A stretch of 64,000 nt of DNA, taken from positions 124,001 to 188,000 of the forward strand of contig OZ237739.1 in the NCBI GenBank assembly GCA_965178125.1. Direction: 5' to 3'. Position 1 is the first letter of the stretch, and each line of letters opens with the position of its first letter. This document shows, in pieces, positions 5,531-30,670 of the stretch. The notes below the pieces were generated by a model. The model saw only the letters and a list, made by a program, of their open reading frames with translations, was not told where the DNA came from and made no database searches. This DNA is from Bilabrum cf. latius. Lineage: Eukaryota. A program made the translations under genes and the position numbers.

Positions 5531-5700
5531 AGGAACGCTGACTCAAGGACACCGGCAAGGGCCAGTTGCAGAGGAACGCTGACTCAAGGACACACCGGCA
5601 AGGGCCAGTTGCAGAGGAACGGGCGATTGCGACTGCGAGGCGGCCACTGGCCAGGCAGAGGAACGGGCGACTGCGAGGCGGCCAGGCAGAGCAGGCAGAG
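5531..5700. repeat. Short degenerate tandem repeat (41-44 bp units around GCAGAGGAACG)
   Basis: AGGAACG recurs at 5531, 5572, 5615 and 5659. The first two units are near-identical (gctgactcaagga[ca]caccggcaagggccagttgcagaggaac). Confidence 0.6.
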
Positions 5701-6012
5701 GAGCCACCCGACCCAGAGCGAATGAGCAGTGGCAAGGATGCGTGATGGCTGGCGTGATCCTGATACAACTACAGGCTACTCGACTCTTTGAAACGTGCTC
5801 TTCGCAGCGCAACCTAGGGTGGATGCAAGGCAATGGCAATGCGTGGGGAGGGCGTGCCCTGCCCCACCGCGATCCGATCTCTCTCCATCCACTGGCAGCT
5901 GCCTGTTCAATCCAATCCAAGCCAAAGAGCAATCGGAGCGTCACCCAAGGAACCGATTTCAAAAACCTCCTGTGTTCCCTGGCCGTCTGCTCCAGCCCAC
6001 TTCAGTTCCTCC

Positions 6013-7329: not shown

Positions 7330-7532
7330 GGTTCTTGACAGTCGGCTGGGACACTTGAATGCACGGCGGCAGGCAGCTGCGGATCGGCGGAGCATTTGTA
7401 ATGTGCAATAGTTCCAGGGGAATTGGGGGTGCCCCCGCTGTTCCCAAGGGAATTCCCCTGGTGGGAATCGTGTGACGAGGACGCCTACCACCACCACAGC
7501 AACTGCGAAAACCTCGCCGTTACTCTCGAACC

Positions 7533-8267: not shown

Positions 8268-8662
8268 TGGTTGATGCATCAATGGCGTACTTGAATCTAC
8301 ACGCTTGCTTGGGGTGCAAATGGCTCCCGCGGCTCCAGTCATTGCGCGAGGAAGTACGCATTGAGCGGCCTAATGCCCGCATGGGTATTGCAGATCATTG
8401 CAGCTCGCTCCTGTGTTCAGATCATGCGTAATGGTTAGGACAAGGCAGCAAAACGCAACTGGAAGTGCACTCGTCATGCCAGTTGGGTCACCGGCTCGAT
8501 GATGCCGAGCGACTTCCGAAAGTAGAACTTGACAAGCACGCGCGAGCAGTCCCGAGCATTATCGCTTCTCTGCATCACTGCGCGTAAAGGCTTCACCTTA
8601 TTTGAGTTCCCGCCTCCCCTGGCACCACAAAGCTCTACCAATTAGTCTGCATTCAGGCGTCG

Positions 8663-9838: not shown

Positions 9839-10116
9839 GGGGCGAGCGTGGCTCTCTGGCAGCCAGATGCCAATGGTTACGGAACCGCCATCCTGTAATT
9901 TTGCTTGCCTGTCTCCGATACCAGATGGGACGTTGATCGGTACCGGAGTTCAACAAGTTGCGTGCAATTTGATTTTCTGCGACATGTTCGTTGGGGAAAC
10001 CACGCAAACGCGCAGCTTTGGCGGCAATACGAACACACACCGCGGGTAATTCTGGATTCTGCGTATATTTTGGGTTGTTGGCTAGAGTACAAAGGCACAC
10101 ATTGGTCGCGAAAGTG

Positions 10117-11292
10117 ATGCCATCGAATAGCAAACCAGAGCACAATTGGTGGGTTCAGTCTAATTGGCGAAGAACTGGCCTTTTTGCCGCTGGATTCTTG
10201 CTCGTTGTCATCCTGTCATGCCCATTCTTAGGGCTCATGCAAGATGTGTCGGTCGCGTTCTCCAGTACACTTGCCAGGCTGCGAGGGGCCGAAGTGGAGG
10301 GACGCTGGCAGGGCAATCAAACCGTGCTGGACAGCGGCGTCACCATCGTGCTGCTGAATTATAAAAGACCAGACAACATCAGGAGCATCGTCAAAGCATA
10401 CCTTGGCATGCCAGAGACCCTGGTTCGCAGCGTGCTGATTTTCAACAACAACCCCACGGACGACCTGTCTGCCCTGACGGACCCTGGGCGAGGAGGCAGC
10501 TCGAGAGTGACTGTGTTGGGCGCGTCTGAGAACGTTGGTATCGGCAATAATCGTTTCTTCGCGGCATCGCTGTCCAAGACGCGCGCGGTCGTGTCGCAGG
10601 ATGACGACCTGCAGCTGTCGCAGCGTGGCCTGGAGCAGCTGCTCATGCGTTGGCAGCAGGAGCCGGACAGGGTGCACGGGACTTTCTGCAGGGGTCCCAG
10701 GCTCGATCCCCACAGGAAGCCACCCGCTCTGCCCGAGGGAGCGACCGAGGAAGACCGGAAGAAGAATGTACCGATCAGGTATGCGTGGGAGCATCAGATG
10801 TCGAACGAGCAAATGGCCCGGCAGAGGGGGCGGGTGGAGGCTTTGCAACGACTGGCCGGGGACAGCGGCGGGGCCATGGTCGACGGAACGTACTGGACGG
10901 CGCCGCGCGATCCGCTGCGGGCCCCCGGCATGTCGGACGCATAGGACCGTGCGTCTGCGTGCCCTGTGCTGATCACCCGGATTGTTGCTTTCGACCGTAC
11001 GCGGGCGTACCAGTACTTCCGTTGGGTGCTTGAGATGCAGGACACAGTTCCAAAGCAGAAGCCGTTTGGGCATGGGGAGGACCTGCTGCTGTCGCTGCTG
11101 TCGGTGCGGGAGTCCGGGGGCAAGCTGAACCGGGTGTGGGAGGCGCTGCTCGAGACCGAGGTGACGGAGCTGCCCGACCTCGGGGTGGGCGTGTCGGCCG
11201 TGAACAAGGACCACGAGCAGTTCAGGAGCATGTTCATGCAGTTGGCGTGCAACCGACTGGGGCTGCCTTGCTGGGATTGGTTGTATGGCTGA
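10117..11292 (+). CDS. Glycosyltransferase family 64 (EXTL2-like), tandem copy 2 (391 aa, TAG=Gln at 10942)
   Basis: Near-identical paralog of 8663-9838 with the same length, the same motifs and TAG at the homologous codon. Confidence 0.8.
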
Positions 11293-11301
11293 GCCAGGGC
11301 T

Positions 11302-11456
11302 TGATTCAATGGCACCCCTACTGACGAATACAGAGCATCCATGTACAGTGATGTTTGGGCCGATAGTGGTATACTGATCGGATCAATTCCGAGTACGAGC
11401 TGAGCGAGACCAGCGCTCTCACTTAGGGGAATTCAGAAGAAGATAAAGGAAATAAT
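11302..11456 (+). repeat. Split direct repeat A1
   Basis: tgattcaatggcacccctac...gataaaggaaataat, repeated at 17821-17975. Confidence 0.95.
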
Positions 11457-13995
11457 GCTCAGCCAGCAGAGTGCGCAATGGAAGCAAAGCCGGGCGATCG
11501 TGGCGCGAATGACCACTCGTATGGCCCCAACGGTGAGGCGGAGGGTGAACGCTGTGGGTGGTGTTTTCGATGTGTTTCAAGGTATGGCTGTTGAACACAT
11601 GTCGAGCTTCTCGGAGCCTGTCGTACGCGAGGCTGTGAACATGCTAAACAAAGAAGGGGCAGATGCGCAGCGGGCTCTGTTGGGCAGCTGCGTACGCGGC
11701 CACACGCCGGTCGCTTCCCTGGGCGCAGGGGCTGCCGTTATGGGCGTGTTCAAACCGACCACGACGCCAGACGTGGAATCGGGCCTGCGTGGCGCTCTGG
11801 AAGTGGCAGCAGGGTTCTCAAAGGACGATCTGATGCCCGAGGACCATGGTGAGCTCTGGAAATGCCTGCAGCAACCACTACAGAGTGGTGTAACGCCACA
11901 GCAGGCAGCGTGGGCAGCACGTGCGGCCCTGTTCGGCTATGCCCGGGTGGCACCGTGGACGATCCCCTTCCTCGACGAAATGTTCGATGCTCTGTTGCCC
12001 AACATGCTGATCCATGCGATGCCGAAGCCAACATGCAGCAGTTCGTCGGCGAGCGCGGCGACGGGTGGAAACTCAGACCAAGATGCGACGGGCAGCAATG
12101 GGGTGCTCCCACTCTGGGGAGCACCGGTGATCCCGCTACCATCCGGGGCATCAACAACAGCACCATTCACGGGGTCAAGGCCTGAACGTGTAGCCGGGGG
12201 GCCGATGGGAGCGCACTCACTGGGCCGGGGCATCATGGACGGTGGCGGGTTTGGGTGGAAACTGCCTGCCCCAAGCGGGGGGGCCGGTGCAGGGGCGACT
12301 GCTACCTCAGGCCATCCGCTGAGCGAGCTGGGCCTCTTTGATTTTGGGGGCGGATTCAGCCATGGTGGAGTGACTGCGGCCGATGCTGGGGCGGGTGGCA
12401 AACCAGCGGGAGGTCCAACGGCAAGCCGCGGTGCCAGCGCGGTGTTTGGGGCGCAGGCGTCGATGGGCACCATCTCGGGCGCAACGCTGGGAAAAAGGGG
12501 GAGAGCGGAAGAGGTGGGGGAAGCACAAGCTCCCTGGGAGGCCATTGTGGCGGATTCGGAACGTCGCACCAAGGCGGCAAGGCGCGAGCAAGAGGTCGAG
12601 GGAGCATCCGCGGGAGCAGGAGAGGCGACCGCGAGTGACGCGATCGACAAGCGAATTCAACAGGCGGTTGCGGCCATGGCATCGGGTGAGCCCAATGGTA
12701 CGTTGTAGTTGCTCCGTGCCCTTGCGCTTGAGTTAAATGCCCGGCCCGAGCACTCCACCCAGGCGATTAAGTCGTCAGCCGGCGCCTGCAAGAAGTCACC
12801 ATACCAGGGCCAGGTCGGAGCAGACGATGGAGACGGCGCCAAGGAAGTGCATAATTCCATTCCCACGGCGAAGGGAGTTGACTCTTTGTTCTACGACACC
12901 GTACGGTCTTAGGAGGTGCTTCAATTTAGGGACAGTGCACGGTATTTGGCCGAACTCGGGGAGGAAGGCGAGAGAGCTAAGGACTTGGCCTCAGTGGCGC
13001 TGACGAGTGCGGACAAGGCAAAGATTTCGTTACTTCGGATTGAACGCCCCGCGCAGATAATGTTCGCTTCTATGGCGAGTGCGGCTGGTTTTCGCCGGGA
13101 GTCAGGATCTGGCCGCAGCTTTCATGTGGCACCGGTGCTGGAGGAGGCGGGTGATTTGCTCATGCCGGACGGGATCAGGCAATTTGCGAGTAAGTGCGGG
13201 TAGCACGTGTTGTCGGGAGTGGCAGAACTGGAACAAGGCAACATTTTTCGATTACCCACGATATTGACCAGATCGGTGTGTGGGGCGCTCGAGTGGGTCG
13301 TGGCAGGGAGCACGTCGTTGCTGAAGGTGGTTATCACACTTGCGACACTGCTGCACCAGGATAAGCATGCGGAAGCCAGGGCAGTAATGAGCAAGCTTCA
13401 CGAGGCGTTGGAGATTGCAGTGCGAAGAATGTTCTTGGGCTTAGGGATGGTCCTTCATGCGGCAGCAGTCCGCACGGCAGGTGGAGGCAACGGGGACACA
13501 GCCAATACGGGTCAGCATTTCGTGTTAGCAACTGCTCTGCGCATGATTTTGATACATAGGGTGGCACCAGTGGGGAGAATGGATACTCCTGCGGTGCTTC
13601 GACTGTGGTAGTTGCGGAGCGAGAACGAGACCCCGCTGCGGATGACGCAGACTCAGGTGGGGCCCACGTGGGAATTACTGGGACTGAATCCGGCAGGCAA
13701 CCATAGCGCTATGGCGTGGGAGGATGTGACAGCCGCGATAGACAAGTCAGCATTGGAGCGAGCGAAGCGGGTGGCAAAGGAGCATGGGGCCGCAGCTGGA
13801 GGAGCGGGGGCAGCGGCAAAACGGTAGTCAGCGAAGGCCAGCAGCAGCAGCAGCAGCAGCAGTAGCGCGAGTGCGGGTGGACAAGAGTCGCAGCAGGAGT
13901 CAGAGCGCCAAAAAGGGACGACATCGGGGCCCAAAACGTAGGCGGAGCACCGTACCTCCCCAAGACGAAGTGGCCGACTAGCGGGGAATGGGTGA
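11455..13995 (+). CDS. Retrotransposon ORF1, putative Gag-like (846 aa; TAG at 12706, 12910, 13201, 13609, 13825, 13939)
   Basis: ATG at the end of A1; one frame broken only by TAG until TGA at 13993. Gag assignment is positional only; no CCHC knuckle seen. Confidence 0.7.
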
Positions 13996-16387
13996 CGCGG
14001 CCCGAGCCAGGGGAAGGGCTGCAGTAGTGTAGGCATGTGCACTATCTTCGGAAGCAGCGCAAAAAATCCTGGCTCAGCAGAAGACTCCGACCCTACAGCG
14101 TGGTGAGCCGAGCCTGCGGACACTGGATGGGCGGTGCATTGTGACGGACATCATGGAACACGCGGACGAATTGTTGGACTAGGTTGCATCTGCAGGCCCC
14201 TCGAGACGATGGCACGAGGTGCAGATGGAAGCAGCCGGCTATTCTGTGGACAATGACGGTGATGCGGGAGCGGGGATGACTGGGGATGCGCCGTCAGCAT
14301 TGGGTGCGGACGGGATGTGGTAGGCTTGGGCACGATGCCTGGCAAAGCGGGACAAGATTGACTTGCGGTCATTCCCACCGGGCTAGGCACCATCATCTGC
14401 TTTGGACGTCTGGTATGGAACGTTGTCACACTGGGAGCGTAGGGGCGAACTGCAGCAGGGGGAGCGATGGGCAGCACGCTAGCCGTGTACGCTGTCACCT
14501 CGTGGAGCATGGCAGGCACATTTGGCTCGTTGTCGACGCTGCGGGGCGCGGGGCGCAGTGGAGCCCGATTGTGTAGCGGGCCGGGGGTTTGTTGGACTGG
14601 CACGACATGGGCTTCGGGCGGAGGCAGTCTTGAAGGTGTTGGGGGCGCAGCCGGTACGGGCTGACCCGAAGGACTTGCCGGCGGACGAGGAGGATGTAGT
14701 CCCGTTCGTGGAAGCAGCAGCGAGTGCAGGCAAGATTCGACCGGTGGAGGGCGCCGCGGTCTAGGTGACGCCTATGTTCGTTGCCAAGAGGACCGCAATC
14801 GAGGTACAGCAGCGGGAGGGTCAGACACCACGCTTGGTGCAGCGGGAGGACACGACTGGCAAGCAGCGCCTAGTCACGGATATGAAGCGCTCGGGCGCGA
14901 ACGAGGCATTTCTTGACTTGCGTTTCCGGTATGGTGATTTTGCTCGGCATTTAGCAGAGCGCGTGGGACGTGACAGGCACGAATGGGGGGCAGCCTTCGA
15001 TTTCAAGGCGGCATATCATAGTATAGCGATGGCACCGGGGCTGCAGCGATGGATGGCAGTTCGCGGAGTGGGTGGCAGCATGTTTTAGTTTGTGGTCTTG
15101 TCGTTTGGTTGCAGAATGGGCTGTTTTGTCGCATCAGTAGTGTTGGCAGAGTGTCTAGCGGGGGTGCGACTGCGCACCGCACATTGGGCTTTTGGGTACA
15201 TTGACGATGGCTTTCTGTCAGCACGTACGGAGGCCCGCACTATGTAGTTGTTGTGGTGTGCCGTGCTTGTAGCGCGGGGGATTGGCATGAGGATATAGCC
15301 TAGCAAACTTACCTTTCCAACATAGGTGATTGAGTTCCTTGGGCTAAAGATTACCCTGGGAGCCCACTTGAAGGTGACACTGCGCTCGGATCGATGGCCA
15401 CGGATCCACGCAGTGCCGAGGACCGTTGAGCGAATGCGAGCTTTCAACATGCTAGCAACGAGTGCGCTGGCGGTCAAGGCTGTGGAGAAACTGGCAGGAC
15501 AGTTGGGCGCGGCTGCGGCAGTAATCCCCCACGCTTCGCAGCACGTGTTTGCGATATACTAGGCGGCTGCAAAGGCTCGCAAAGGTGGTAGGCACATCTG
15601 GACGGCAGAGTTCAACGAGGAATTTGAGTGGTGGCTGACATGTAGGGACCGCGGTATCTTGACAGCGGCAGCAGCTGCACCGATATACCCGTTGCCGGAG
15701 GGGAGAGCATCCGTGTTTTGTGCTGACGCGTCAGCCCATGGGCTGGGTGCAATGTGGCGCCGAGGCAATGGTGATTCTGGCTTGATGCAAATGGGTTTCC
15801 ACGAGGACATGCAGTTACTATCCAGTACGGCACGCGAACTAGCATCACTACGAGCTTTTTTGTCAGGACCAGGCTAGTTGGCGAGGAGCCAGACTTGCCC
15901 AGAGGCGCTCTTCGTGCTGTCAGACAATCAAGCCCTGCCAAATTTGCTGCGGAAGGGCGGCTCGATGAAGGCTGGGTAGCGAGATGAGCTGCGAGAGATT
16001 GGAAGGCTGGCTGAGAACTTGGGATACGTTATCTTCCCCGTGTGGTAGAGGCGAAGTACACCGATCATGGTGGCATGCGATAGATTGAGCAGGGTGGAGG
16101 ACGGTGCTGGTCAACTGGTGTAGACGGCGGGGCAGCGCGTGGGCGAAACGGGGTTTGTCTCGGCGGCAAGGGCGACATCTGACTCAACTTTTCATGCACC
16201 ATTTCATCTTCGCAGGACCATTTGGGGAGCTGATCCCAGTGACTGGACGAGCAGGCTCAAGTGCTGCGGCACAACGGCGAGCAGCGGTGGCGGCGACTAG
16301 GACCCTGATGCTGTAGGAGAGTCAGCAGCTCGGCAAGGGAGCTCTGGACGCGCGCAGGCGGAATCTGACCATGCAGGCGGAACTTGA
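13988..16387 (+). CDS. Retrotransposon ORF2, reverse transcriptase plus RNase H (~800 aa; alternative ATG at 13784)
   Basis: RT motifs KQRLVTDM, FDFKAAYHSI, F*FVVLSFG, GYIDDG, PT*VIEFLG. RNase H motifs FCADAS..GLGA, STAREL, LSDNQ, ACDRLSR. About 16 in-frame TAG and no TAA/TGA until 16385. Confidence 0.92.
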
Positions 16388-17432
16388 GGTCGGGGATCCG
16401 GTGGAGGCCATGTGGGCTTTGCTGACGGAGTAGTGCGCCGCCGGGTTGAAGTATGCCACAGTGTTGCGATTGTTCCAAGCGCAAACGGCGTGGTTCAGGT
16501 CAGCGGAGTTCCCGCGTACCCCACTCGCAGACGTGGAGTACAGGCAGGTCAAACTGGCCCTGCTCGGCTACAAGCGTAGATGTGCCGGGGCGACGGATCC
16601 GGACGCGGTACGTGCCCTACGTGTCCTGGTGGACAACCCTGTAACGTTGCGAGCACTAGTGATGATGGCCTGGTAGCTGCAGGCAGAGTGGGATTCGATG
16701 TGGCAAGGCCCAGCTGCGCTGGCCCGTGCGGACTACAACTCAACACCAGCGGTTCTCGATACATTTATGTGCTGCTATGTGGGGACATTCTGTGGCTTGG
16801 CCCGGTGGCCAGATCTGGTGCATCTGGCAATAGGGGAGATAGAGTGGACTGCAGCGTCTGATGACAACGAGGTTGTTCCCGTGGCCCTGATTGGGTGGCA
16901 GCGGTACAAGTCGCGGGTGCTCGGCGGCAACCCCGAGCAGCGCCCGCCAGCGGTCATTCCATGCTTGCCGGATGGATTCGAGGAGTTGTGCCCGTATCGG
17001 TGGCTGAAGTGGTGGGTATCAGTTCGGTAGCCAACACAAGGGCAGCGCGGGGAAGTATTCGCCTCTCGAACACGGGCTGCGCACAGTGCCACGCTGCAGT
17101 GGATAACAGCGCAAGGGATTCCTGTGCACCGCAAGGGGGAGGGTGTGTACGCCTTCAAGAGTGCGGGAGTGTCAGCATTGCGCCAGACGGACCCAACCAA
17201 GGACGAGAAGTACGTGCACGGCCAGGCTGGGTGGTCTCTGCCCAACATGCCAGCGGTGTATGATCGTTACTCATTGATGGAAGCGGCAAGGGTTACGAGG
17301 AGTGGGATTCTTCGGGCTATGGTGGGAGCTGGCTCCATCCCAGAACTTCTGAAGATTTGGGAATCCCAACGCAGGGAGCTTCACCGGAGCCCAGTGAGCA
17401 GTGGTGGGGGTGAACGGGATTCAGGGCTCTAA
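16194..17432 (+). CDS. Retrotransposon ORF3, tyrosine recombinase (412 aa; TAG at 16314, 16431, 16674, 17028)
   Basis: GTFCGLARWPDL (Arg), RYKS (Lys), LCPYRWL, GVYAFKSAG (HxxR position), AGW....MPAVY (Trp, Tyr nucleophile). Overlaps ORF2 and ends in TAA. Confidence 0.85.
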
Positions 17433-17440
17433 CTGGGCCA

Positions 17441-17822
17441 GTGGGTGTTCCTTGCGGCGTTCGATGGGCGAACAGCCAAAAGGGGGGCCCAGTGTAGATC
17501 CCGTGGCCAGTGGCAGGTAGTCCCCATAGCGGCTTGAAAGGTCCGTGCCGCCTGCCCAGTGCCCGGGGAAGCACCAGCCAAAACCAAAGCGCCACGGAAG
17601 GAGGAGATTACGAGGAGCGGGTACTAGGTACGAGAGTGGAAGCTGAGGGCAGGACAAAGCGGCCAGCCGGGCCTAGGCGGCACGGAGACGGCCGTGCTAG
17701 CGACAGACGAGTGGGCGACGGTGGGTAGCGGCGCACGAGTGGCGCGTGGCGGGAGAGGGAGAGTGCTGGGGGAGCGAAGCATTGAGCGGTTGATCGACAG
17801 ATCCACATTACCAACCATCATG
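17441..17822 (+). repeat. Split direct repeat B1
   Basis: Repeated at 19259-19640 with one C/G difference (17664 vs 19482). Confidence 0.95.
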
Positions 17823-17975
17823 ATTCAATGGCACCCCTACTGACGAATACAGAGCATCCATGTACAGTGATGTTTGGGCCGATAGTGGTATACTGATCGG
17901 ATCAATTCCGAGTACGAGCTGAGCGAGACCAGCGCTCTCACTTAGGGGAATTCAGAAGAAGATAAAGGAAATAAT
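17821..17975 (+). repeat. Split direct repeat A2
   Basis: Copy of 11302-11456. Abuts B1 and shares the TG dinucleotide. Confidence 0.95.
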
Positions 17976-19258
17976 TTTTACTTTTATAGAATTGTTTCTT
18001 GTCTTGTTGGCCCCATTTCCTTCGGATATGGATGGGGCGGCATCGCGGCGGAGGCCGGGAGGTGAGGGGGGACCAGTAGTTGGCGGACAACAGAGGGGCC
18101 TACAGCTGAAGGGAGGGGTGCCAGGCGGATAAGGTTTACTCAGCGAGACAGGGCGTCTTAGGGGCGGGTAAGTGTGTGTGTGTCACTGCTGCCCGGTAGT
18201 GTGTGTAATATTCTCTTGGGAGGGGGGCGGAGGCAGACCGCTCCTCCTCCCTCCGCACTCAGTACCAGCATGAACCAGCCCTCTTTTCTGTTCATGTGGA
18301 CCCCCTGACAACGGGGGGACCACGTGGCACCCACGCAGGATGGCGGCGCAGATTCGGAGGGTACCAACACTCATACCTAGCTACCAACATTTAAGCGTTG
18401 CGGAGGGCAACGGAACGGGGCCAGGGAAGCTGCGTGCGTCTAGCCATCTAGAACACGTGGACGAACTGGTGGTGGCCTTTGCCACCATCCCATTTCACCA
18501 ACCAGATGAGGCTCCGTGGTCGCATCTGGTGCCGATGGCCACTGTTAGCAGGACCGTTGGTGGGTGGCTTGGGGGGCCAGGGACTTGGCTGAGTCAAGTA
18601 GGCGTGGGAGTAGGGGTGGGTGCGGTCAGTATGAGGTCCGTGCCTCATGTTGATCGCTGTAAATCCGGCTATAGGTCGGAAGCAACCCACCCTCCCGGTT
18701 GCAACAGTGGGGACGGGTGTGAGGTGGCCACGCGTGAGGTGGTCATGAGACTGGGAGCAGAGGTGTGGTCCGTGCCGTAAAATCCCCCATGTGGAGCACC
18801 TCTGTTTTTCTGGAAGCACAAAGAACCGCGTTGCGGGCCCAGGAAACTTCTGTCCTTTGGATGGCTCCGTGGCCGAAGGGGGACAGAGTGACCTGCACAG
18901 CCGAGAGGAGAGCCTGAATCTCGGATCGACCCTGGGACAGTCGCACCGGCGACACCCACCGAGAGAGCGAGGCGAGATCCTGCACAGCGTACGCTGCAGT
19001 GGAGGACCACTGTGGTGCTGCAAGAGGCACGGCAACGTGCGGACAGCAGCCGGACCCCGTATCCTCACAGAGGGTAAGGCAATGGGAGCCTGAATAGGAG
19101 CGGACCGGGTGACGACTGTGCTGGGGCTGCGGTGAGCATACAGGACCGTGTCGAGCGTGGTGGGCTGGGCGGGATGTGCGAGCGGTGATGCCCTAACTCG
19201 ATCGAGTTCAAGATTTTTTCTTCTTTTTGCGTGGTGGCGTCCCCTAGGTCGGGGCGGC

Positions 19259-19640
19259 GTGGGTGTTCCTTGCGGCGTTCGATGGGCGAACAGCCAAAAG
19301 GGGGGCCCAGTGTAGATCCCGTGGCCAGTGGCAGGTAGTCCCCATAGCGGCTTGAAAGGTCCGTGCCGCCTGCCCAGTGCCCGGGGAAGCACCAGCCAAA
19401 ACCAAAGCGCCACGGAAGGAGGAGATTACGAGGAGCGGGTACTAGGTACGAGAGTGGAAGCTGAGGGCAGGACAAAGCGGCGAGCCGGGCCTAGGCGGCA
19501 CGGAGACGGCCGTGCTAGCGACAGACGAGTGGGCGACGGTGGGTAGCGGCGCACGAGTGGCGCGTGGCGGGAGAGGGAGAGTGCTGGGGGAGCGAAGCAT
19601 TGAGCGGTTGATCGACAGATCCACATTACCAACCATCATG
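19259..19640 (+). repeat. Split direct repeat B2
   Basis: Copy of 17441-17822 at the right end of the element. Confidence 0.95.
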
Positions 19641-19759
19641 GATTCGAACGCGCATCAGCGAAGGTTCGGGGCAGCAGCGAAACTCTCCCCGGAATCCGCA
19701 GAATCGCAAGATCTATCTGAACCAACCACGGACAAAACGAGCACGGCTACTGTACAAAT

Positions 19760-21182
19760 ATGCCCACTAAAACGATGAATATGACGCCGCAAGAGGCGCA
19801 AGCCTACCTCAAAGCACGAGGAGGGCCCGACATTTCAATTTCGTACGGTAACTCATCAGGTAGCGCCGCCGTTCCTGGTTTTGGAGTAGCAGCTTCTTCT
19901 GTGCCTGGATTTGGATCAGATGGGTCATTCAGTAGTGCCCCGGCTCCGGCACCAGCGCCAGCTCCGGCACCGGCTGCCGCGACTGCAGCTGCTCCGGGCG
20001 GTTTGTACGGAGGCTCAGCACCATCATACGGCGGGTCCACCCCTTCGTATGGCGGATCTGCGCCATCTTATGGTGGAGGAGCTCCATCGTATGGTAGCGC
20101 TGCGCCATCTTATGGCGGATCTGGTGGCGCTGCTCCGTCGTACGGAGGCGGCGCCGCTTCCTACGGCAGCGGAGGCGCAGCGCCTCCTCCAGCGCAATAC
20201 GGTGGTGCGGGGTCTGGTTCCGGAGGAGATTACTATGGCCAAGCACCGGGCGGTTACGGGCAGCCTCATGAATATTCGGCCCCGGCTCCCGCCCCGGCCC
20301 CCGCCCCAGCACCCACTCCGGCCCCTGCGACCTCCGACGTGGACGCACTCTTTGCCGCTGTGGACACGGACAACTCGGGCCAGATCGACTCACGGGAGCT
20401 GCAGGCCGCCCTCTCACACGGGGGCTACTCCCGGTTTAGCCCCCGCTGCACGAACCTTCTCATCAGGATCTTCGACACGTCGGGGAGCGGAACCGTGGGA
20501 AGGTCAGACTTCACCCAGCTGTGGAAGTACCTGCAGGAGTGGTCGGCCAGCTTCAAGCAGTTCGACAGGAATGGGGACGGTGAGTGCATCGCATTATTGT
20601 GCAGTGGAGGTTGTGCTTTGGACTGGCATGCGGCAGCGTACAGCATTCACAGGCCACCCAGAATCGCAGTGCCCGATGTGCAGCCCCATTCGTTCCCTCG
20701 TTGCCCCATCCTACTCCCGTACACCGCAGGCTCCATCACCTTTGCCGAATTCTCGGACTCGTTGGCCAGGGCGGGGTACAGACTGAGCGCCGCCACTGTG
20801 GGCCGCATCTTCTCCAACTACGACGAGGACAAGGCAGGCACGCTTTCCTTTGACGAGTTCGTGCAGGCCAACGCGGAGATTTCCATCATGACCTCGGCAT
20901 TCCGTACCCATGACACGTGAGACATATAGCCGTTTCTGCTGCCGTGTTTGCTGTGCTACTTACGAGGTGACTGGCCTGAGCTCCTCCGTGTCTTTAGGTG
21001 TGCCTGTCGCCTGGCGCCAGAGGCAGCGAGCGAGAGGTTGCGTGCCCCGTAATGATGTGCTTGCTACTCGAATACCATTTCACCAATGACCAATCCTTCT
21101 TCGCAGTGGCATGCGAGGCGTGATCACCATAAACTATGAGCAGTTCCTGCAGCTCATCATGGGCCTACCGCTTAGGGACTGA
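19760..21182 (+). CDS. Penta-EF-hand Ca2+-binding protein (peflin/ALG-2-like) with long Gly/Pro/Tyr/Ala-rich N-terminus (exons 19760-20579, 20730-20916, 21107-21182)
   Basis: EF hands DTDNSGQIDSREL, DTSGSGTV, DRNGD|GSITFAEF, DEDKAGTLSFDEF and HD|TGMRGVITINYEQFL, preceded by APSYGG repeats. GTGAG/CAG introns; TGA stop. Start could be 19760, 19775 or 19781. Confidence 0.88.
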
Positions 21183-22006
21183 GAGTGGTTGGTCCGGCAC
21201 GGCGCGGTGACCAGGTACGGTGATACCAGGAGGCATGGAATCGTTGGCAAGGGGCCAACAATCTACCCTATATTTCTCTATATGTGGTGACGAAACATGG
21301 ATTCGTAGAAGATTTAGATCATAGTATCAATCACACAATTACTTTCCTTTTGACTTCCCCGTTGCTTTCTGTGCTTGCGGGTACCCACTCGCGCGCATCC
21401 CCATGTCCTTGGCATACGATACTACTGAGTCGTGCACAAAATCCAGCTGGGGATTGTCCTCTCCGAGCGGCTGCGGTGTTGACGACATGTTGCAATTTGT
21501 TTACGAGGACATCGGAAGCATGCGCAGGAAATAGCACAGGAAGTCGCACTGGCAAAATTAATTCTTACCTCAAGTATACTGGCAAGTTGCTGCACGCGGG
21601 ATGCGAGTCGGCTGACCTATGTCGCAATCCGGGAGCGAATGCGCTGCTGTTGCATCTCATCAGCAGACATACCGATGCCACACAACGAACTCAATTTCGG
21701 GCGCTGACCACCACAAGGATATTTTTAAGTGGATGGCGGTATCGTGTAGACTTCTTGGTTCCCTAAAGCGGCGGTTTTCTGCTGACCTACCGTTTTGAAT
21801 CAAAACCGGAAGTGCACTCAACGCAGCGCTCGCCGCATGAAGAGAGCAAAGAAGTGCGTATGCATCCGGTAGCCAGTGAATACCAAAGACACAAAGCTTG
21901 AAGCCTATACTTGTCAGCTTTTCGCGACACTGTTAGCAACCGGATTCCTGCTGCATTCATTAGGCAACGCGCCACAGCAACAGCAGCTTCAGATCATTGG
22001 CTTGTC

Positions 22007-25000
22007 ATGCTGCTGCTCCTGCTGCTGCTTGCTTCCATAAGTTACGTTGAACCAACCTTAGATACATGTGAAATGCAACTGTGGGGCCTATTACGGTCAA
22101 GACTTGATGATCAAGGTGCGGAGCTTGCCCGAGGTATTCATGTGTCCGCCAGTGCTCTTGACAGCCAAGCTTGTGAACACTTCATTTCGATCAACTCGAA
22201 CATGCACTCAAATTAGGTGAGTTTATATCTTGCGGGTTATCTGTGTGCGTTTATGCATTCACGGATTCATTGACGCGTACTTTGTAGTGCTCCGTGGCAA
22301 CCCTCGCAGACCTTGATCCGAGTACCATACTCTGCCGTTCTGGCAGTTGACAAGAACAATCCGATTGGGCCAATTGCAGAAAAACATAGAATTGCATAGG
22401 ACTGGTCTCTCGCGCTGATGATATTAGAAGAAAGGAATCTAGGCGAATCGTCGAGGCACGCTCGGTACCTAGGTTGGCTGGCCACTGACTAGAGTAAGCG
22501 CATCGGGGCGTGCTCTCCCGACACCACCTCTGCAGCAGCAGCAGTGGCACCGTAGACATCTTCCCTGGCGCCCGTACTTGCTTCTTTGGATCGACTAGAC
22601 GGCGAGCTGCACACCCATGCAGACCATGGCGAGCTGCAGCAAGCCGCGGGGCGTGTCGTGGGCGCCCTGTCCGTGACCCCCATGCATGCGATCTGCTGGA
22701 CGCCATCGCAGCTGTCCATGGTGCGGGGATCCAAGGCGGCACAAACCGCCGTCACTGCTGTAGTGGACTTTCTCCAGTTTGCGGCGAGCTCCGAATCGAT
22801 CGCCGAAGAGGCGGGCCTGTCGCCAGGGACCCTTGAAGCGTGCAAGCACGCGGCAGCGATCGCAAAGGAACTACTTGCGGTTGACGATGCCGATAGATAC
22901 GAAACGGCCATGCAAGCGCTCGAACAGATGCAGGAAGAGACAGACGGTTAGGGCTCGCGCGCCGCCCTTGTTCGGTGGGCCTACGCCACTGTGCACACGA
23001 GGGCCCTGGAGCTGAGTGAGCTAGGGGAGGATGCCACGGTGCTGCGTGGGGAGCCGCGTGCAAAACAGGCCAGGATCAATGGGCCAGAGAGCACTGACGC
23101 GCCAACACGGCTTGTGTTGGCCCCTCTGGCAGACTTGCTGCTGGGTGCTGGGGCGGTGGTAGGCGCCAGGTAGGTGCCGGTCAGTGCCGCTTTGTCTGTT
23201 TCGACGCGCGCTGCGCCCGCGCCTAGCGAGGAAGATGGCGGCTAGGATGCAGAAGATTCGAGTTATTTCATTGAGGTGCGGGCCGCTGGTCGCATCGCAG
23301 CGGCAGTTGGCGTTCCTGTCGTAGCAAGCCACGGCCAGTGGGCTAGCAACAGCGAGCTGCTTGCGACCACTGGCGCATCGCTGGAGGACAGCCCCCACGA
23401 AGCGCTGGACGTATACATGGAGGCACCATCGACGGACATGGAGCGCCGCAGGATGCAATCAGCATAGTTGAATAGGCGGCAGATGCTGCATAGGCTGCTG
23501 CAGGACGTGCGCGCGGTGCGGCAGCACCATGATTCAGGCACGCTGGCGCTGGAAGGAGCCTCGGCGCTTGGTGCGCAGGGTGCCCACCTCGAGGCCAGTG
23601 TTCTGCGCGTTCTTGCCAAAGGCATCGGGGCCGGCGACAGCTTGTCAGGCACGGGATCTGGATCTCGACCGGAGCTGCGCCAGCTCCTGCAGCACGAGCT
23701 CCGTGTACCGTCCTTCTGCCGATCTTGGAGCGCAGGGCATCCAGGCGGCGAGTCAGGCGCGTACTCCATTCGCAGAGACGACCCCGTACCCGTAGAGCTA
23801 TTGAATGCGGCCCGTATAGCATTCCTGGACTCGGAGGCGCTGGCTCACGAAGGCCTCGCCGTGCTGCTGGTGCGGCAGCAGGTGCTGCTGAGCGAGGCGG
23901 GCGAGCTCGGACTGGTCGCGATGGAGCCGCAGCACCTGGCGCAGGGGCCGCTCGCGATCGCCCGATTCATGAGTACTGAGGCGTACGCTGCGGCTCTTGA
24001 GATGGTGCAAGACACGGGTGCCAAGCTGGGGGCGCCTGGCATCGCTGTCGGGGTGGCTGCCGTGCTGCATCGAGTGCCGCTGGCTCGCGTGGCTGAGCTG
24101 GCTGCGTCGAGCGATACAGTCCAGGATTTCATCCGAGCCATCCACGGCGATGTCGGCCCCTGCCTGCGACCCGCACCGCTGGCCGTGTCTGCGAGCACTG
24201 AGGAGATGGCCTCGCGGCAGCTCCTCGCCGCACTGAGGGGCCTCGAGCAGCAGTATGCCGTGCATCTGCAGACTAGTGTGCCGGCCACGGAACTTTTGCA
24301 TCTGCACCCCGAGGCTGGGCTCTCTGCCAGCGATGAGGATCGCTTGGACGCAGGTGCCATGCATGAGCTGCGGGCCGCCTCGCACGATCTTGCGAGGCAC
24401 CTGCACCTCCTAGAGGAAGTGAGGGACATTGCAAGCGGATCCATGCACCACCATGTCCTTCAAGCCGTCGCCCAGCCTCCAAAGCAGCTGCACCAGTTGC
24501 ACTAGGTGCATGGATCGGGGCGGAGGCAGAGGGCTGCAGCCGCTCCGGCGAAACATTCGGGCCCCGCACCAGCTGACTACTTCGAGTATCACGCCGTCCG
24601 GGTCTTGCTGTCCGAAGTGACGGTGCTGGAGCGCAGCATGCGCGCGACCAGCACGATGCACGCGCTCGCCGAGAGCAGGCTGGAAGCGGTGGAGGCGCTT
24701 GATCGGGAGTTGCTCAACCGGGTGTAGCGTACGGTACTGCGGGCCATGGAAGAGCAAGCCGCGCAGCCTCAGGAGGATCAAGGTGCCTCGCGCGAGGGTG
24801 AGCACGACGCGAGGCGAGCGTAGACAGGGCACCATAGAGCTTCAGACGCGGGTGCAGTTGGACAGGGAGGTGCAGAGACGTTGGAGGTGCTGCCTGACGG
24901 GAGCGTGCGAGAGGTGACGGCGCAACGGGGTCCGCGTGGCGACAGTGGGCAATCGGACGGCAGGTCGGTCCAGCCACGGAACGATGATAATTCCAGGCCG

Positions 25001-25075
25001 GACACGAGGCAGGACGATGCCAGGCCTCGCCGCAGCATAGGCAGGCGGAGATTCAGAAGCGACCGATTCGGATGA
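22007..25075 (+). CDS. SET-domain (SETD3/Rubisco-LSMT-like) protein with degenerate active site and N-terminal hydrophobic signal (exons 22007-22216, 22310-25075; ~990 aa)
   Basis: Single frame broken only by TAG. LSMT-like motifs LIRVP, LALMILEE..LGESS....YL, WTPSQLSMVRGS, WAYATVHTRAL, LVLAPLADLL and SNSELL. TGA at 25073. Confidence 0.65.
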
Positions 25076-25248
25076 GCACGCCGAGCAGCAATGGTCGATG
25101 GGTGGGGCAGGCGTCCCAAGCATGAGACGGAGCTCGGGCGCATCTAAGGGCAACACATGTCTGAATTGACCGCAACAAGAATGTGCCGTTCGTTAAAGTA
25201 CCACATCGTACCGGCAGACCCATCCATGACTCGATTCATGCATAAAGG

Positions 25249-25298
25249 TCATCCAGTCGCTGGACACTCCAGCAGCAGAGCTGTAGCAGGCTTGTCAT

Positions 25299-25330
<32 letters not shown>

Positions 25331-26979
25331 GCAGCTGTGGCTTCGCTTCCCTTGGCGCTGGGAGCAGCGCCAGGGCTAGCTGCACCATCGTCCACACTGC
25401 AGAGAGCCTCGATCGCTGCTGCGGCGAACACTTCCTGCAGTCCAATCTCGTACGCTCGAATTGGGACCAGCCTCGTCTCAGCTGTGCCGCTAGCTGTCGG
25501 CCTGCCCGTCGCATGTTCTGCCCCTGCACTGTCCTAGCATCCAATGTCAGCAGAAGAGCTGCTCTCATGTTTATCTGCAGCAGCACCGTCGGCCAGCAAT
25601 CTTTTTGCCGCAGCTGCAGTCCCAGCAATGACCCCAGCATCTGCCGCGCTGCACACTGCACCCAGCACAGTCTCCACAGTGTATCCCCCCGGGTCATTCA
25701 AGTTCACCGCCACTTCCCATCGCCCGCGCCCATGCGGGAGCGCCATACTCTCGCATCGGGGAACACCACCGCCCCGCTCGCTCGCAGCCCGCGCGATGCG
25801 CCTGCACACTGCGGGCAGTCGGCGGCGAGCACCAGCACCAGCACCAGCACCGGATGCGGACTACGAAGCTGCCCCAGAAATCGCCCCTACGGATACAGAT
25901 GCAGCCCCTTTCCCCGGCCCTGCATCGCGCGCACCAGCACCTTCCTAGGGAGCATATGCCTTGCTTTGCCAGCCCTGCGGCGCGTCGCCACGTTTTTCTA
26001 CTCCCGTTGTGGCCCGGCCGTCCCACACGTCCGCGTCCGCGAACTCGATGTTGAGGTTCGTGATCAGGGGACACGCGCCCACCACCACTGTGGGCTAACG
26101 GGCGTCTCGGCCTGCTTCTGAATCGATAGCTCTCCCCTTAATGGGGGGTTTGCCATGCTATCCACCGGCAGACGACGGCACGGTCCCATCCTGAAAGTAC
26201 CCGCGCATGCGTCGCCTAACCGACACGAGCGATTCACCGGTCGTGCTCGCCCACCCGTACATCTCACATCGACCCAGCGGAACTTGTCCAGAGCTTGCAT
26301 TGTTTGTCATTAATGCACTGGAGCCCCGCCCCTCGATGGCCTCGGCAATGAACCTCGCGATGGCTGCGCCCTCGCGCTTGACCACGCTCGCCTCTCGCTC
26401 CCCGATGGCATCCAGCCAGGACCACTGCGAGCTGGCGCTCGGCAAGGCGGGGCTATCTTTGCTTCTGTCGATCGCTGTTTCTATGTCGATCGTTCTAGCA
26501 AGATGCTATTTGGCGAGATTCCATGCTGTTCTGGCCGGTCCAGTTGCCTCAGGCGTGGATGACGTGCGTGCCGTCAAACGCACAGGCTGAACAGATATGT
26601 GATCAAGAAACGACACAGCTGGATGTACGGAGTCTTCTTTGGGACTAGAAATTGTGCGGGTGCTACTTGGCGCTATGCTGTAGCTCTCAAGTGAACGCTC
26701 AGCTCGGAGCACCTGATCAACTCCCTGTTCGGGCAAGGCAGGCTCCGGCCCCAGAATCTCGCGACTCAGCGACGCTGCTGCAGAGCGTATCGAAACAGAA
26801 TCTAGAGCGCCAATTGTGATTGACGTCCTGGCATAGACTGGATCTCTGAAGCTGTACAGCAAAGCTGCAGATTCCGTGGTGTTGCAACAGCGCATGGCAG
26901 AGCGGCGTATTCGTGCTGCCGTCCGAGCTCCACCGACAGACACATATAAATGTACCAGCCATCCAATTCGTAGTGTCAT
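25249..26979 (-). CDS. Formiminotransferase-domain protein (FTCD N-terminal subdomain / FTCDNL1-like; 576 aa)
   Basis: LLYSFRDPVYARTSITI, HPAVSFLDHISVQP, MYGWAS...LVSVRR...YF, VVGACPLITNLNI, RRIARAASERGGG...MALPH...EVAVNL. One frame across several TAGs; TGA at 25249. Confidence 0.8.
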
Positions 26980-27091
26980 TTCACGATAGACATGTTTGTT
27001 ATCTGCGCGGCGAAAGCCCCAGTGCAGCTGCATGCGATGCACCTGCACGAAACCCGAAAATGATCACTTAAACGTACATTCACGCAGTTAT

Positions 27092-27794
27092 ATGGCAACA
27101 ATGGCTCTGTCTCGGCGTTCATAGGTACTAAGACTGTATATGGATGCAATAAGGACGATACGGCGCGTGAGATCCCCGCGGTTGGGCGATACTATTTGTT
27201 GCATCTCCAGACTGTATCGGGTTGTTGTACAGAACCATCGATGCTTCGCTCCCTGCAGGTATTCCATGGCGATTCTAATGCACTCAAGATGAGTATGCAG
27301 CAAGCCAGGTAGATGTTTGAGGCAAACCGAAATGTCGAAGACGAGGGACAGATTGGTGAGGCCATGCATGCCAATGGACCGTGGCAGCACCCGTAGCAAC
27401 CTCGTCACTGGCCAAATTTGCTTATAGATGCGCCATTTTCGCAGACTCTGCTATTTGTGAAGGCTAGGATGGAGTTGCATTTTTGAGCCAGCACATAGTA
27501 CAGGGCAAAATGGAGAAGGAGAATACGTATTCCATCAAGGTTGAGCCGCACCATGGCATGGGCGAAGACCAGGACGCAGATGACGACCTCGCCGCGTTCG
27601 AATCAAGCAGTCCAGACGTGCGAGACAGCGGCCCGCACACGAGCACGCTGCACATCCGCTCCGCCCAGGATAGCCTGAAGCCACTGCCGGAGGAGGACGG
27701 CTGCTGCGGGGGGCACCACCACGACGGAGACGGGGAGGGGCATGGGCACAGCCACGGGGGAAGTGCAAGTAGCAGCACAGAGGGGCGATAGTAA
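27092..27794 (+). CDS. LYRM7: LYR-motif complex III assembly factor LYRM7/Mzm1-like (exons 27092-27166, 27259-27355, 27445-27794; 173 aa)
   Basis: S*VLRLYMDAIRTIRR|VFHGDSNAL....AR*MFEANRNVED...I|DSAICEG*DGVAFLSQHIVQG, followed by a Cys/His-rich tail. Ends TAG-TAA. Confidence 0.78.
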
Positions 27795-27989
27795 AGCTGC
27801 TTCCTTCCATTTGCAATGAGTGTACAGACGAGTTCACGTTCACAGAGTGCAAGCAGCCACCGCAACCGCAACCGCCACCGCTACCGCAAGTGTTCTAGTC
27901 CACCCTAACCCGCTGCAGCATCCCACCTGGCTGTGCTGCTGTAGAGCAGAGCCCAACTAAGAAAGCTCCTAACTCTCATGTCCCGCCTG

Positions 27990-28383
27990 CACCCTCGGTT
28001 CTTCTCCTCTTGGCCACAGGGCCCTCAGGATGCCCCCCCACGCCCACCCTCGGTTCTTCTCCTCTTGGCCACAGGGCCCTCAGGATGCCCCCCCACGCCC
28101 ACCCTCGGTTCTTCTCCTCTTGGCCACAGGGCCCTCAGGATGCCCCCCCACGCCAACCCTCGGTTCTTCTCCTCTTGGCCACAGGGCCCTCAGGATGCCC
28201 CCCCACGCCCACCCTCGGTTCTTCTCCTCTTGGCCACAGGGCCCTCAGGATGCCCCCCCACGCCCACCCTCGGTTCTTCTCCTCTTGGCCACAGGGCCCT
28301 CAGGATGCCCCCCCACGCCCACCCTCGGTTCTTCTCCTCTTGGCCACAGGGCCCTCAGGATGCCCCCCCACGCCAACCCTCGG
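27990..28383. repeat. 55-bp minisatellite, ~7.1 near-identical copies
   Basis: Unit caccctcggttcttctcctcttggccacagggccctcaggatgcccccccacgcc; ACCCTCGG recurs at 27991, 28046, 28101, 28156, 28211, 28266, 28321 and 28376. No unique spacers. Confidence 0.95.
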
Positions 28384-30489
28384 ACACGCCTTCTCGTTGT
28401 CCCTGCCCCCACCTGCGCGACAACCAGAACTAGATTCACCTGGGGGCTAGGAAGCTCCCACGGGCTTCAAGTCGGGTGGAAGTGTTCCATGCTGCTGCTG
28501 CTGCTCTGTGGTCTAGAACCCTGTGCTACTGCCGCTACGCACCCCTGCCCCTGCCCCTCCTCCTGCTCCGGCTCCTGCTCCTGCTCCTGCTCCTGCCCTC
28601 ATGGCGCTGGCTTCACTGCGATTCAGGGTCTACAGGAAGCTGGTCAGCCGACCAACAGCTCCACTAGCGGACTGCTACCGGCTGGTCCGGCCATCTGATC
28701 CAGAGCATGCCACTGCCACTGGACCGCTGGTCCTCGTCGTCATCGCCGTAGTGCTCGCTTCGCACGCTGACGAAGCCGAACTTGCCGCAACACTGTTACC
28801 TTTTGATGCTTGCTATGAAGCAACTTGTTCCCTGGCTTGAGGTACGGTCTAGCGCACGACCGCCTACTGGCTCAGGAGGTACTGGAGGGCAGCACCCTCG
28901 GCTGCCCGTGCAGCCGCGTCGTCGTTATCCGCGATGCCCGTGTCGCTTGTCCATCCGCGTGCAACTCTTGGGGTGCCTGGCTGATCTGCAGTTGAATTTA
29001 AGGTTCCGCCAAGCGGCTGCATCGCCGCATGCCCACTCATTCTTGCCATGGCCATCGAGGCGGCGGCCACCGCGGCCCTTGCTGCTGCCGTGGCGGGGTC
29101 CTAGTCATCGTCACACTGGGCCTCTCCTTTCGCTGCGCCTGTCTCTGTCTTTGCTTCTGCTTTGTGGCCGCTGGGAGCTGACCCCGCTTGCACGCCCACC
29201 TGTTGACTTGAGGTGGAGGGTACGCCCGACAACGACGACCCGGTTGTGCTCGGTGGCAGCCCCCCGCTGCTGGTCGAGCTGAAGCCGCTATGGCCCCCAC
29301 GGGAGGTTGCCAGGCCCCTAGCCCAAGGAGTCAGCTGCAGTGCACTGCTGTGCGCGGGTGGGGACAGACCAGCCAAAACGGAGCTGGGTATTGAAGGGGT
29401 GAAGAGCGGGGGCGGTCGCTTGGATTGCAGAGACAAGCCTGTCGAGGATGATGACGAGCTCGAAGATGAGGAAGAGGCATTCTAGCCACGTCCACTTGTC
29501 ATTCGATCGCCGCAATCACTGCTTCCACTCTCGTCTCCATCGCGTTGTAGAATACTTGAGTCGGCGGCTGCAGCCGCAGCCTCTCGCTACGGCCCGATCG
29601 AGGTATACGCCCTAATCGCCGCGATCTGCTGCATGCTGCGGGGCTCCAAAAGACTTGGCCTGTGTTCGGACGGGACTTCCTGCATGGCAGCAATCCCATG
29701 CTAGGCACTGCTCGAGCCACGAGTCATGGCACTTGAGCCGGCAGCGCTAGCAGCAGCTGTAGCAGCACCTGCCGCAGCCGTAGGGCCAGGACCACCGCGA
29801 GCTATTCTACTCTCCGATTGCGCCACTATCCCTGCTAGGGCCACTGGGTTCATGGGCTGCACAGTCCGAAGGAGGGCGAGGATGCCCTGAGTGGAGAGGC
29901 ACAGCGGCGCTCGGCCGCCCAGGGCACTTGCTTCGGCCTCTGCTCGCTTCGAGTACTTGCCCCGCATGACTTCGCCCTAGATTGCCGGCGTATAGATCTA
30001 GAGAGAGTAGTTGAAAAACGCTCCCGGTTGGTCCAGCACGCACCACATCTGCAGCAGGTCGCGCGGCTCGACCTGGCACGATTCTCCCGGTCGCACGTGC
30101 TGCAGGGTCGACCCAGCCGCTGCTGGAGATAGAGCAACACTCAGGGGCTCAGACTTCAATTTGAGTATCCACCTATCGAAATGGTTCCCCAAGTACGGCA
30201 CCCTGCGAGCTGCAGCTGCTCTCCTTGACACTGTGTCTTGCGCACCGTCCTGCAAGTGAATCGCTGCGTCCGCCTCCTTTTCACTTTGAGACAGCCTCTT
30301 GGCCTCTAATCGTCCCAATAATCGTATTCTCGGTTCTACCTGCTCCTCAAGAACAACGTATATCATACCGAAGAACTTGCGACTGTTTGAAACGTCCGCG
30401 TCCGAGCATCGAATTGCGAAGCTTCCCTCCCCGCCAGCAAACGAACATCGGAGCAAATGCTGCTGCATCTACTGCTACATGGTACTCAT
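28300..30489 (-). CDS. Hypothetical protein (729 aa) with low-complexity C-terminal half and C-terminal NLS-like PVAKRRRT
   Basis: One frame with only TAG interruptions, from ATG 30489 (MSTM*Q*MQQH) to TGA at 28300 inside the minisatellite. Confidence 0.7.
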
Positions 30490-30670
30490 CTCATTGTCGT
30501 GCGCTTCTCATGCTTTATACCGATCTGAATCGTTACAACTTGCGTCTACTTTTTCGTGCTCGGTTCTGTCGACCATCGTACAGTGCAGTGCACCTTCCTC
30601 TGCGGGAACGCGGGGAAGCTTTTCACGTCCGACCAAGGGTCTGTTAGTGGATTTCACACGAAATCGTGCG

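Follow-up and report, generated by a model that had tools for sequence, protein, structure and literature searches.

Glutamine as the probable meaning of UAG, with UAA and UGA retained as stops, in 64 kb of protist nuclear DNA

What do UAG and UAA mean in a genome whose genes appear to run through the one and to end at the other? The question is raised by a stretch of contig OZ237739.1, 64,000 nucleotides long (positions 124,001 to 188,000; hereafter the window, from whose first letter all coordinates are counted), which looks broken when the standard stop codons are applied but gives long open reading frames (ORFs) when TAG is read through, among them the gene for a cytoplasmic dynein-1 heavy chain and the reverse transcriptase (RT) ORF of a DIRS-like retroelement. 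The explanation that we favor, with a probability of roughly 85%, is that the window is nuclear DNA from a GC-rich, intron-poor protist whose cytoplasmic ribosomes read UAG as glutamine while both UAA and UGA terminate translation, the pattern of NCBI translation table 15. We base this explanation on the conserved glutamine columns in which TAG is found, on the lack of in-frame TAA, on the loss of coding character immediately after the TAA that closes a LYR-family gene, and on the exchange of TGA for TAA at the ends of orthologous genes in a relative that likewise has in-frame TAG. UAA is absent from reading frames and stands at real gene ends, both here and in a related species, the test of its absence covering the window and a metagenomic contig of the relative (L001).

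To keep the absence of TAA from being circular, ORFs were drawn with TGA as the sole stop codon. The ORFs obtained in this way range from 400 to 6697 codons with 1–19 TAG apiece, and the genes on the list likewise contain 1–19 TAG each and no TAA at all. The few TAA that do fall inside these ORFs sit at either edge, 5' or 3', or belong to antisense frames, and since the long ORFs are rich in TAG and free of TAA with TGA alone as stop, the absence is not built into their definition. In 17 gene models, with 17,857 codons in frame, the tally is 0 TAA, 0 TGA and 107 TAG, whereas the +1 and +2 frames of the same DNA contain 32 and 38 TAA, 293 and 249 TGA, and 88 and 90 TAG, respectively. In these genes TAA behaves as TGA does, and TAG as an ordinary codon.

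The same counts could be read in another way, namely that UAA and UAG both encode glutamine, as in table 6, that TGA is the sole stop, and that TAA is missing simply through the GC-richness of the DNA. Reassignment of both UAR codons (UAA and UAG) to glutamine is cited in papers as the common variant, and TAA is scarce throughout the window, with 127 and 157 occurrences on the two strands compared to 362 and 333 for TAG. Codon bias is nevertheless no explanation for the missing TAA. The A-ending member makes up 12–21.5% of two-fold codon pairs in frame (CAA 127 versus CAG 605, or 17.3%; GAA 20%; AAA 21.5%; TTA 12%), so that at the CAA share of 17% about 18 TAA would be expected where none is observed beside 107 TAG, and the other frames of the same genes do contain TAA, at the counts given above. 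The probability of finding no TAA among 107 such codons is 1.4e-9 for a TAA share of p = 0.173; with p = 0.10 it becomes 1.3e-5, and with p = 0.05 it is 4e-3. A Fisher test of TAA/TAG against CAA/CAG gives 9e-9. Leaving out two weakly supported models on the minus strand (25249-27063 and 28300-30507), which supply 21 TAG, reduces the count to 86 and gives a probability of ~8e-8. Together with two observations described below, the drop in coding score behind the TAA of the LYR-family gene and the exchange of stop codons between orthologues, these numbers make a table 6 code very improbable here.

The second part of the question, whether UAA terminates, depends on where genes end, for which the following features of the window are needed.

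6013 to 6852, minus strand: last exon of an ascorbate-peroxidase-type gene (PF00141, E value 9.6e-38), ending ...GCA TTC TGA with the stop at 6015-6013.
7533 to 8267, plus strand: EMC6-domain gene (PF07019, E value 9.3e-11), ending in TGA.
8606-9838 and 9973-11292, plus strand: two tandem GT64-type glycosyltransferase genes (Pfam), each with one TAG and a TGA end.
13730 to 16387, plus strand: RT ORF of the DIRS-like element (RVT_1, E value 7.4e-9), with 18 in-frame TAG, no TAA and a TGA end.
16089-17432, plus strand: third ORF of the DIRS-like element, with a TAA stop at 17430-17432.
21670-21569 joined to 21470-21339, minus strand: coding sequence of a spliced Dad4-like gene, 78 codons, with a TAA stop at 21341-21339.
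22310 to 25075, plus strand: gene without a name, with 10 in-frame TAG and a TGA end.
25249-27063, minus strand: long ORF of 604 codons with 6 TAG, no Pfam match and a coding score of 0.075-0.08.
27092-27166, 27259-27354 and 27444-27794, plus strand: exons of a LYR-family (LYRM7-like) gene, with 4 in-frame TAG and a TAA stop at 27792-27794.
28300-30507, minus strand: long ORF of 735 codons with 15 TAG, no Pfam match and a coding score of 0.075-0.08.
35030 to 55060, plus strand: cytoplasmic dynein-1 heavy chain, an ORF of 6676 codons with 19 in-frame TAG, no TAA and a TGA stop at 55058-55060.

Pfam further names a TBC RabGAP, an IQ protein and a penta-EF-hand (PEF) protein in the window. Of the 18 gene ends visible, 15 are TGA, three are TAA and none is TAG; UGA is therefore the usual stop (15/18) and UAA a minor one (3/18), as expected at high G+C, which in 4-kb steps runs from 59 to 72%, with ~60% in the left half and 70–72% over the dynein gene. 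That UGA terminates is seen from the dynein, PEF, peroxidase and EMC6 genes, whose TGA coincides with the end of the homologous or orthologous sequences. A sequence-only reading made before this analysis had placed TAA ends at 17430-17432 and, in the form TAG TAA, at 27789-27794, and both lie exactly where it put them. Its count of 15 TGA ends with none at TAG also stands, but its two TAA ends become three with the Dad4-like gene, which it had missed; its remark that internal TAG are many and internal TAA lacking agrees with the tally of 107 to 0.

The most telling of the three TAA ends is that of the LYR-family gene, where a TAG (27789-27791) is followed directly by the TAA (27792-27794). The GT..AG joints of this gene, 27166>27259 and 27354>27444, were taken from contigs of public sequencing runs, and the spliced translation was made from them. 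Coding character was scored as codon log-odds in 100-codon windows, validated by leaving out one gene at a time, with a mean of 0.228 for the true frame (standard deviation 0.131, n=150) and of -0.173 for the other frames (standard deviation 0.135, n=750). For the last exon the score is 0.226, for the 100 codons past the TAA -0.234 and for the entire 495 codons between the TAA and the next in-frame TGA (29280) -0.215. Coding stops at this TAA, and a code in which both UAA and UAG were glutamine would have to extend the protein by 495 codons with the score of a non-coding frame. Contig depth in runs X5, X6 and X7 is 89, 9 and 12.5 in the bin 27391-27907 and 0.05, 0 and 0 in the bin 27908-28424, from which we draw no evidence on the end of the mRNA. 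The name of the gene is less secure than its end: exon 2 alone matches Complex1_LYR below threshold (E value 0.0037, 17.6 bits against a cut-off of 24.8), and it is from this match and a reading of the LYR motif that the label 'LYRM7' derives. Some 190 bases downstream of the TAA, at 27980-28100, lies a direct repeat of ~55 bases (…ccctcggttcttctcctcttggccacagggccctcaggatgcc…).

Either codon of the TAG TAA pair could terminate the LYR-family gene, and this would also suit a dual UAG that is sense within genes and a stop near the 3' end of the mRNA; ambiguous codes have been described for some ciliates and trypanosomatids. Against such a dual role, not one of the 18 gene ends needs TAG, and TAG occurs in frame at close to its off-frame rate (107 versus 88 and 90), with no sign of avoidance. 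The last 60 codons of the dynein gene contain 4 TAG, through which the alignment with homologues continues until a TGA where the homologues end; the TAG that lies 16 codons upstream of this TGA is read through to the conserved C-terminal block, so that TAG is no position-dependent stop there. We rate a dual UAG as no more credible than table 6, that is, as quite unlikely.

Independent evidence on the stop codons comes from a relative of the source organism. A single close relative emerged from a search with the peroxidase, the protein P0332 (89% identity), encoded on L001, a metagenome contig of 4947 bp that is collinear with window positions 6012-11283. The DNA of the two is 85% identical in the peroxidase exon and 69-71% identical in the EMC6 and GT64 genes, and the GT64 gene of L001 (884-2212) aligns as an orthologue with the window copies at 59-60% identity. 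The coding parts of L001 contain no internal TAA and 10-11 in-frame TAG, of which six are in the GT64 gene, three in the EMC6 gene and one in an EF-hand gene. The orthologous ends compare as follows.

Peroxidase: ...GCA TTC TGA in the window, ...GCA TTC TAA in L001.
GT64: DWIEG followed by TGA and DWLYG followed by TGA in the two window copies, DWVVE followed by TAA and TGA in L001.
EMC6 gene: TGA in both.

In the peroxidase and GT64 genes alike, the TAA of L001 occupies the very codon that is TGA in the window, and beyond this codon the two peroxidase genes no longer resemble each other in DNA. Orthologues that exchange TGA and TAA at a conserved C-terminus are doing what synonymous stop codons do, which indicates that UAA terminates, and it is difficult to reconcile with a code in which TGA alone stops translation. 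The two regions also differ in gene arrangement, in that the GT64 genes form a tandem pair in the window and there is a single gene in L001. Both window copies have their sole TAG at the same codon, within GMSDAxDRASACP.

As for what UAG encodes, the dynein gene is the most informative, being identified by the full Pfam set of dynein domains and by PDB matches to dynein-1. We aligned the window sequence with 24 homologues. Three of the 19 TAG fall in well-filled columns, the remainder lying inside lineage-specific inserts; the TAG at 35372-35374 and at 44357-44359 stand in columns with glutamine in 20/21 and 22/24 filled cells, and in a HMMER alignment to human dynein-1 the second of them is opposite the glutamine of ...CDEQLSSQSHYD... 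Two further TAG sit within a run of glutamines (YVQxQQQQQxQ). The RT ORF was compared with 120 long homologues, from a set of 394 at E <= 0.001. Its TAG at 15323-15325 falls in a column with glutamine in 79/119 sequences, and at the TAG at 15086 glutamine is the commonest residue (37/120); other TAG in this ORF lie on variable columns. Eight TAG sites of L001 could be aligned with window codons (CAG 3, CAA 1, GCA 2, CGC 1, AGG 1), and the four that match glutamine are those in conserved contexts, AVLSQDDDL, TIPTQKPFGHGED, MVQLAQGDDDE and DYYGQ, the third of these being a site in the EMC6 gene with TAG in L001 and CAG in the window. Judged from these alignments, UAG is translated and glutamine is its most likely meaning. 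Its share among glutamine codons is 18 TAG to 34 CAA or CAG in the RT ORF and 19 to 286 in the dynein gene, and its density rises from 0.28% of codons in dynein, with a G+C of 0.82 at third codon positions (GC3), to 2.0% in the RT ORF, which suggests that TAG is less favored in GC3-rich genes.

That TAG is translated at all might be questioned by supposing a standard code, with the in-frame TAG due to pseudogenes, missed introns, RNA editing or assembly errors, and the public proteins of these genes are only short, TAG-bounded pieces (P0184, P0194). Decay would have hit all three stop codons, however, and 107 TAG beside neither a TGA nor a TAA in 17,857 codons is not its mark. The gene at 22310-25075 gives evidence on this point: its joint, 22214>22308, is spliced in the contigs of runs X5 (22308-25288) and X6 (22308-25197), which show 0 changed letters, so that its 10 TAG are neither spliced out nor edited. 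The same pattern recurs in the second species, and an untranslated TAG seems to us hardly credible, the least probable of the readings considered.

Several observations count against glutamine as the meaning of UAG and against termination at UAA. Regarding the first, the third well-filled dynein column with TAG reads I9/M6/Q4, the RT TAG at 16046 is on an I/V/L column (I 42, V 23, L 15 of 100), four of the eight aligned L001 sites are opposite alanine or arginine codons in the window, and the TAG of the window GT64 is opposite GTG in L001. The dynein and RT columns, and the half of the L001 sites without glutamine, are what a sense UAG for some other residue could draw on, for instance leucine as in rhizarian exLh, in a code that keeps UAA and UGA as stops. 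Against it are the three best columns (glutamine in 20/21, 22/24 and 79/119), where leucine is not among the commonest residues printed, as well as the two TAG in the glutamine run and the CAG or CAA opposite TAG at four conserved-context sites, and we find such a residue more improbable still than a dual UAG or a table 6 code. Regarding UAA, the TAA of the third DIRS ORF is followed by an in-frame TGA 35 codons on (17535-17537) and that of the Dad4-like gene by one 4 codons later. With a TGA so close behind two of the three TAA ends of the window, these two, which a table 6 code can also accommodate, cannot separate the two readings. The 34 codons past the TAA at 17430-17432 have a coding score of -0.002, and no variant of this TAA is among the differences listed for the contigs of 4 runs over the multi-copy element. 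In L001 the GT64 TAA has a TGA directly behind it, and the frame past the peroxidase TAA is open for 46 codons, to the end of the contig. The sample is also small, being one 64-kb window and a 4.9-kb contig of a relative, and UAA may be sense rarely or in certain contexts elsewhere in the genome. On balance, the glutamine columns, the missing TAA, the fall in score after the LYR-family gene and the exchanged stops of L001 uphold the central claim of the sequence-only reading, that UAG is sense, likely for glutamine, and that UAA is still a stop.

A code in which UAG is glutamine and UAA a stop could be decoded by simple means. UAG would be read by a tRNA-Gln with the anticodon CUA, and a tRNA with the anticodon UUA would be lacking; since UUA would read both codons and CUA only UAG, a CUA-only tRNA-Gln is the simplest decoder. 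The release factor eRF1 would presumably be weakened at a G in the third stop position and would still read UAA and UGA. Such a change would be expected in its N-domain at residues that read the third stop base, for which PMC5304391 names positions in the GTS, NIKS and YxCxxxF motifs, human T32 and L69 among the residues it points to. We deem this combination of a CUA tRNA and an altered eRF1 reasonable because the same expectation is stated for the fornicate Iotanema in the account of PMC5304391. The 64-kb window contains no tRNA gene by ARAGORN, Rfam at gathering thresholds gave no match of any family there, and eRF1 is not among the genes of the window.

The lineage of the source organism was approached through dynein. 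A FastTree phylogeny (35 rows, 4421 columns) groups the window sequence with a JGI protein and then with Tribonema and a cercozoan, in a stramenopile/rhizarian cluster away from the opisthokonts, and the same placement is obtained for the motor region with IQ-TREE (21 rows, 1735 columns). Approximately unbiased (AU) tests reject an opisthokont position with p = 8.9e-8 when the JGI sister row is included and p = 0.017 without it; with the sister removed, the window sequence joins Tribonema at 99% by the Shimodaira–Hasegawa-like approximate likelihood-ratio test (SH-aLRT). The organism thus appears to be stramenopile-affiliated, on one gene only and with a very long branch and a skewed amino-acid composition. 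An affinity to the aphelids was considered on account of TAG as glutamine, Amoeboaphelidium being the non-ciliate protist for which this is cited most often; the dynein trees and the AU tests speak against it and reject it, these being of a single gene with a long branch and from a tree without a named aphelid sequence. The closest dynein matches have 45% identity at full length and 46% among TAG-free fragments over a substantial part of the query, no protein in a collection of 5.8 billion exceeding 46%. The best peroxidase matches are uninformative on taxonomy, at ~50-55% to plants, a choanoflagellate, Cafeteria, raphidophytes and red algae alike.

Going further, we propose only tentatively, and with somewhat more doubt than conviction, that this is the first stop-codon reassignment in a stramenopile-affiliated nuclear genome, present in at least two species, that of the window and that of L001, and arising in a GC-rich genome with UGA as main stop. 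Here the G-ending UAG was captured and the A-ending UAA kept as a rare stop, the reverse of what simple codon loss under mutational pressure predicts. Such a reversal would favor an ambiguous intermediate in which a tRNA with the anticodon CUA competed with a weakened eRF1. A literature search turned up no altered nuclear code in any stramenopile, its coverage being incomplete and the paper on the source genome being one that may report such a case, and on 'code 15' it found only phages and ciliates. The code itself is known, being of the table 15 type, and it is the lineage that appears to be new.

Further features of the window concern its introns, its two doubtful ORFs, its retroelement and its occurrence in public data. 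Spliced joints of the form GT..AG or CT..AC, 89-190 nt long, occur at six places between 20.5 and 27.5 kb in contigs of three public runs, and they fix the introns of the EF-hand gene, the LYR-family gene, the gene at 22310-25075 and a small minus-strand gene. The intron of the Dad4-like gene is given by a CT..AC joint, 21470>21569, in contigs of three runs; exon 1 of this gene matches DASH_Dad4 with an E value of 0.0098, below the curated cut-off, and exon 2 has a coding score of 0.299. The minus-strand ORFs at 25249-27063 and 28300-30507 show no codon-position GC pattern, and run contigs overlap parts of both; they may be genes, on this or the opposite strand.

The DIRS-like element occupies 11404-17537 and perhaps extends to ~19400. 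Its three ORFs overlap, and RVT_1 is found in the second. The third, which had been called a tyrosine recombinase ('YR'), matched no Pfam family at E <= 1 and no relevant PDB sequence, and a metagenome scan with it for further copies of the element gave 32 pattern matches and no relative. Summed contig depth over the element is ~600-6800 in runs X5 and X6 compared to ~5-150 in neighboring genes, which indicates either many copies or high expression. The orthologous site in L001, where the GT64 gene directly adjoins the EF-hand gene, lacks the element. An X5 contig over 18970-19425 differs from the window by 80 changed letters and 17 gaps, so that this run contains a diverged second copy of the sequence downstream of the retroelement. 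Five short public proteins (P0184, P0187, P0190, P0191 and P0194) match pieces of the RT ORF at 72-97% identity; P0184 spans the distance from one TAG of this ORF to the following one and P0194 stops just short of a TAG, showing that standard-code ORF calling fragments the genes of this lineage in public collections. Outside the repeat element, the DNA of the window occurs with 0 differences in runs X1-X8, which are filed in four studies under four organism labels; none of these runs is recorded as RNA, and one DNA-like run carries the window DNA at very low depth. The source organism may live with other organisms or in their cultures.

A nuclear genome that separates UAG from UAA is of interest for two reasons, one mechanistic and one practical. 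Each independent split tests whether the two codons are mechanistically tied to each other through eRF1 and wobble decoding, and a GC-rich case with UGA as main stop broadens the conditions that allow it. In practice, gene callers using the standard code cut these genes at each TAG, the public collection having only TAG-bounded fragments, and table 6 would read through the TAA stops, so that annotation needs table 15.

The sequence-only reading had held reassignment of UAG alone to be very rare; rare it is, but it is not unique. As recounted in PMC5304391, no cases of a UAG/UAA split in nuclear genomes were known before 2017, and they are still few. UAG as glutamine with UAA as a stop is described for Iotanema spirale, Protocruzia tuzeti and two lineages of phyllopharyngean ciliates (PMC5304391, PMC11687900). 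Iotanema resembles the window in that UAG alone became glutamine and UAA is still a stop, and in the mechanism expected, a CUA-anticodon tRNA and a change in eRF1, for which T32G in the GTS motif is reported (PMC5304391); it differs in belonging to an unrelated lineage, the Fornicata, and in having UAA as its primary stop where TGA ends 15 of 18 genes here. Protocruzia tuzeti and the two phyllopharyngean lineages share the code table, with several independent origins (PMC11687900); set against these ciliates, the window has a DIRS-like element and GT..AG introns of 89-190 nt, and the dynein tree contained no ciliate. Table 6 codes, as described for Amoeboaphelidium protococcarum, hexamitid diplomonads, oxymonads, ulvophytes and many ciliates, likewise place TAG at glutamine positions, but here TAA never occurs in frame and ends genes. 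UAG is leucine in the rhizarian exLh and in a ciliate and serine in Scotinosphaera, with UAA still a stop (PMC5304391, PMC11687900), so that these have the two codons decoupled as in the window, whose conserved columns are glutamine and not leucine or serine. The 'genetic code 15' of crAss-like and Lak phages, with TAG as glutamine, has the table number in common with the window; phages use release factors of the bacterial type, and the mechanism is not comparable. Among all these systems the window is set apart by its GC-rich setting, by the dominance of TGA among its stops and by its probable lineage.

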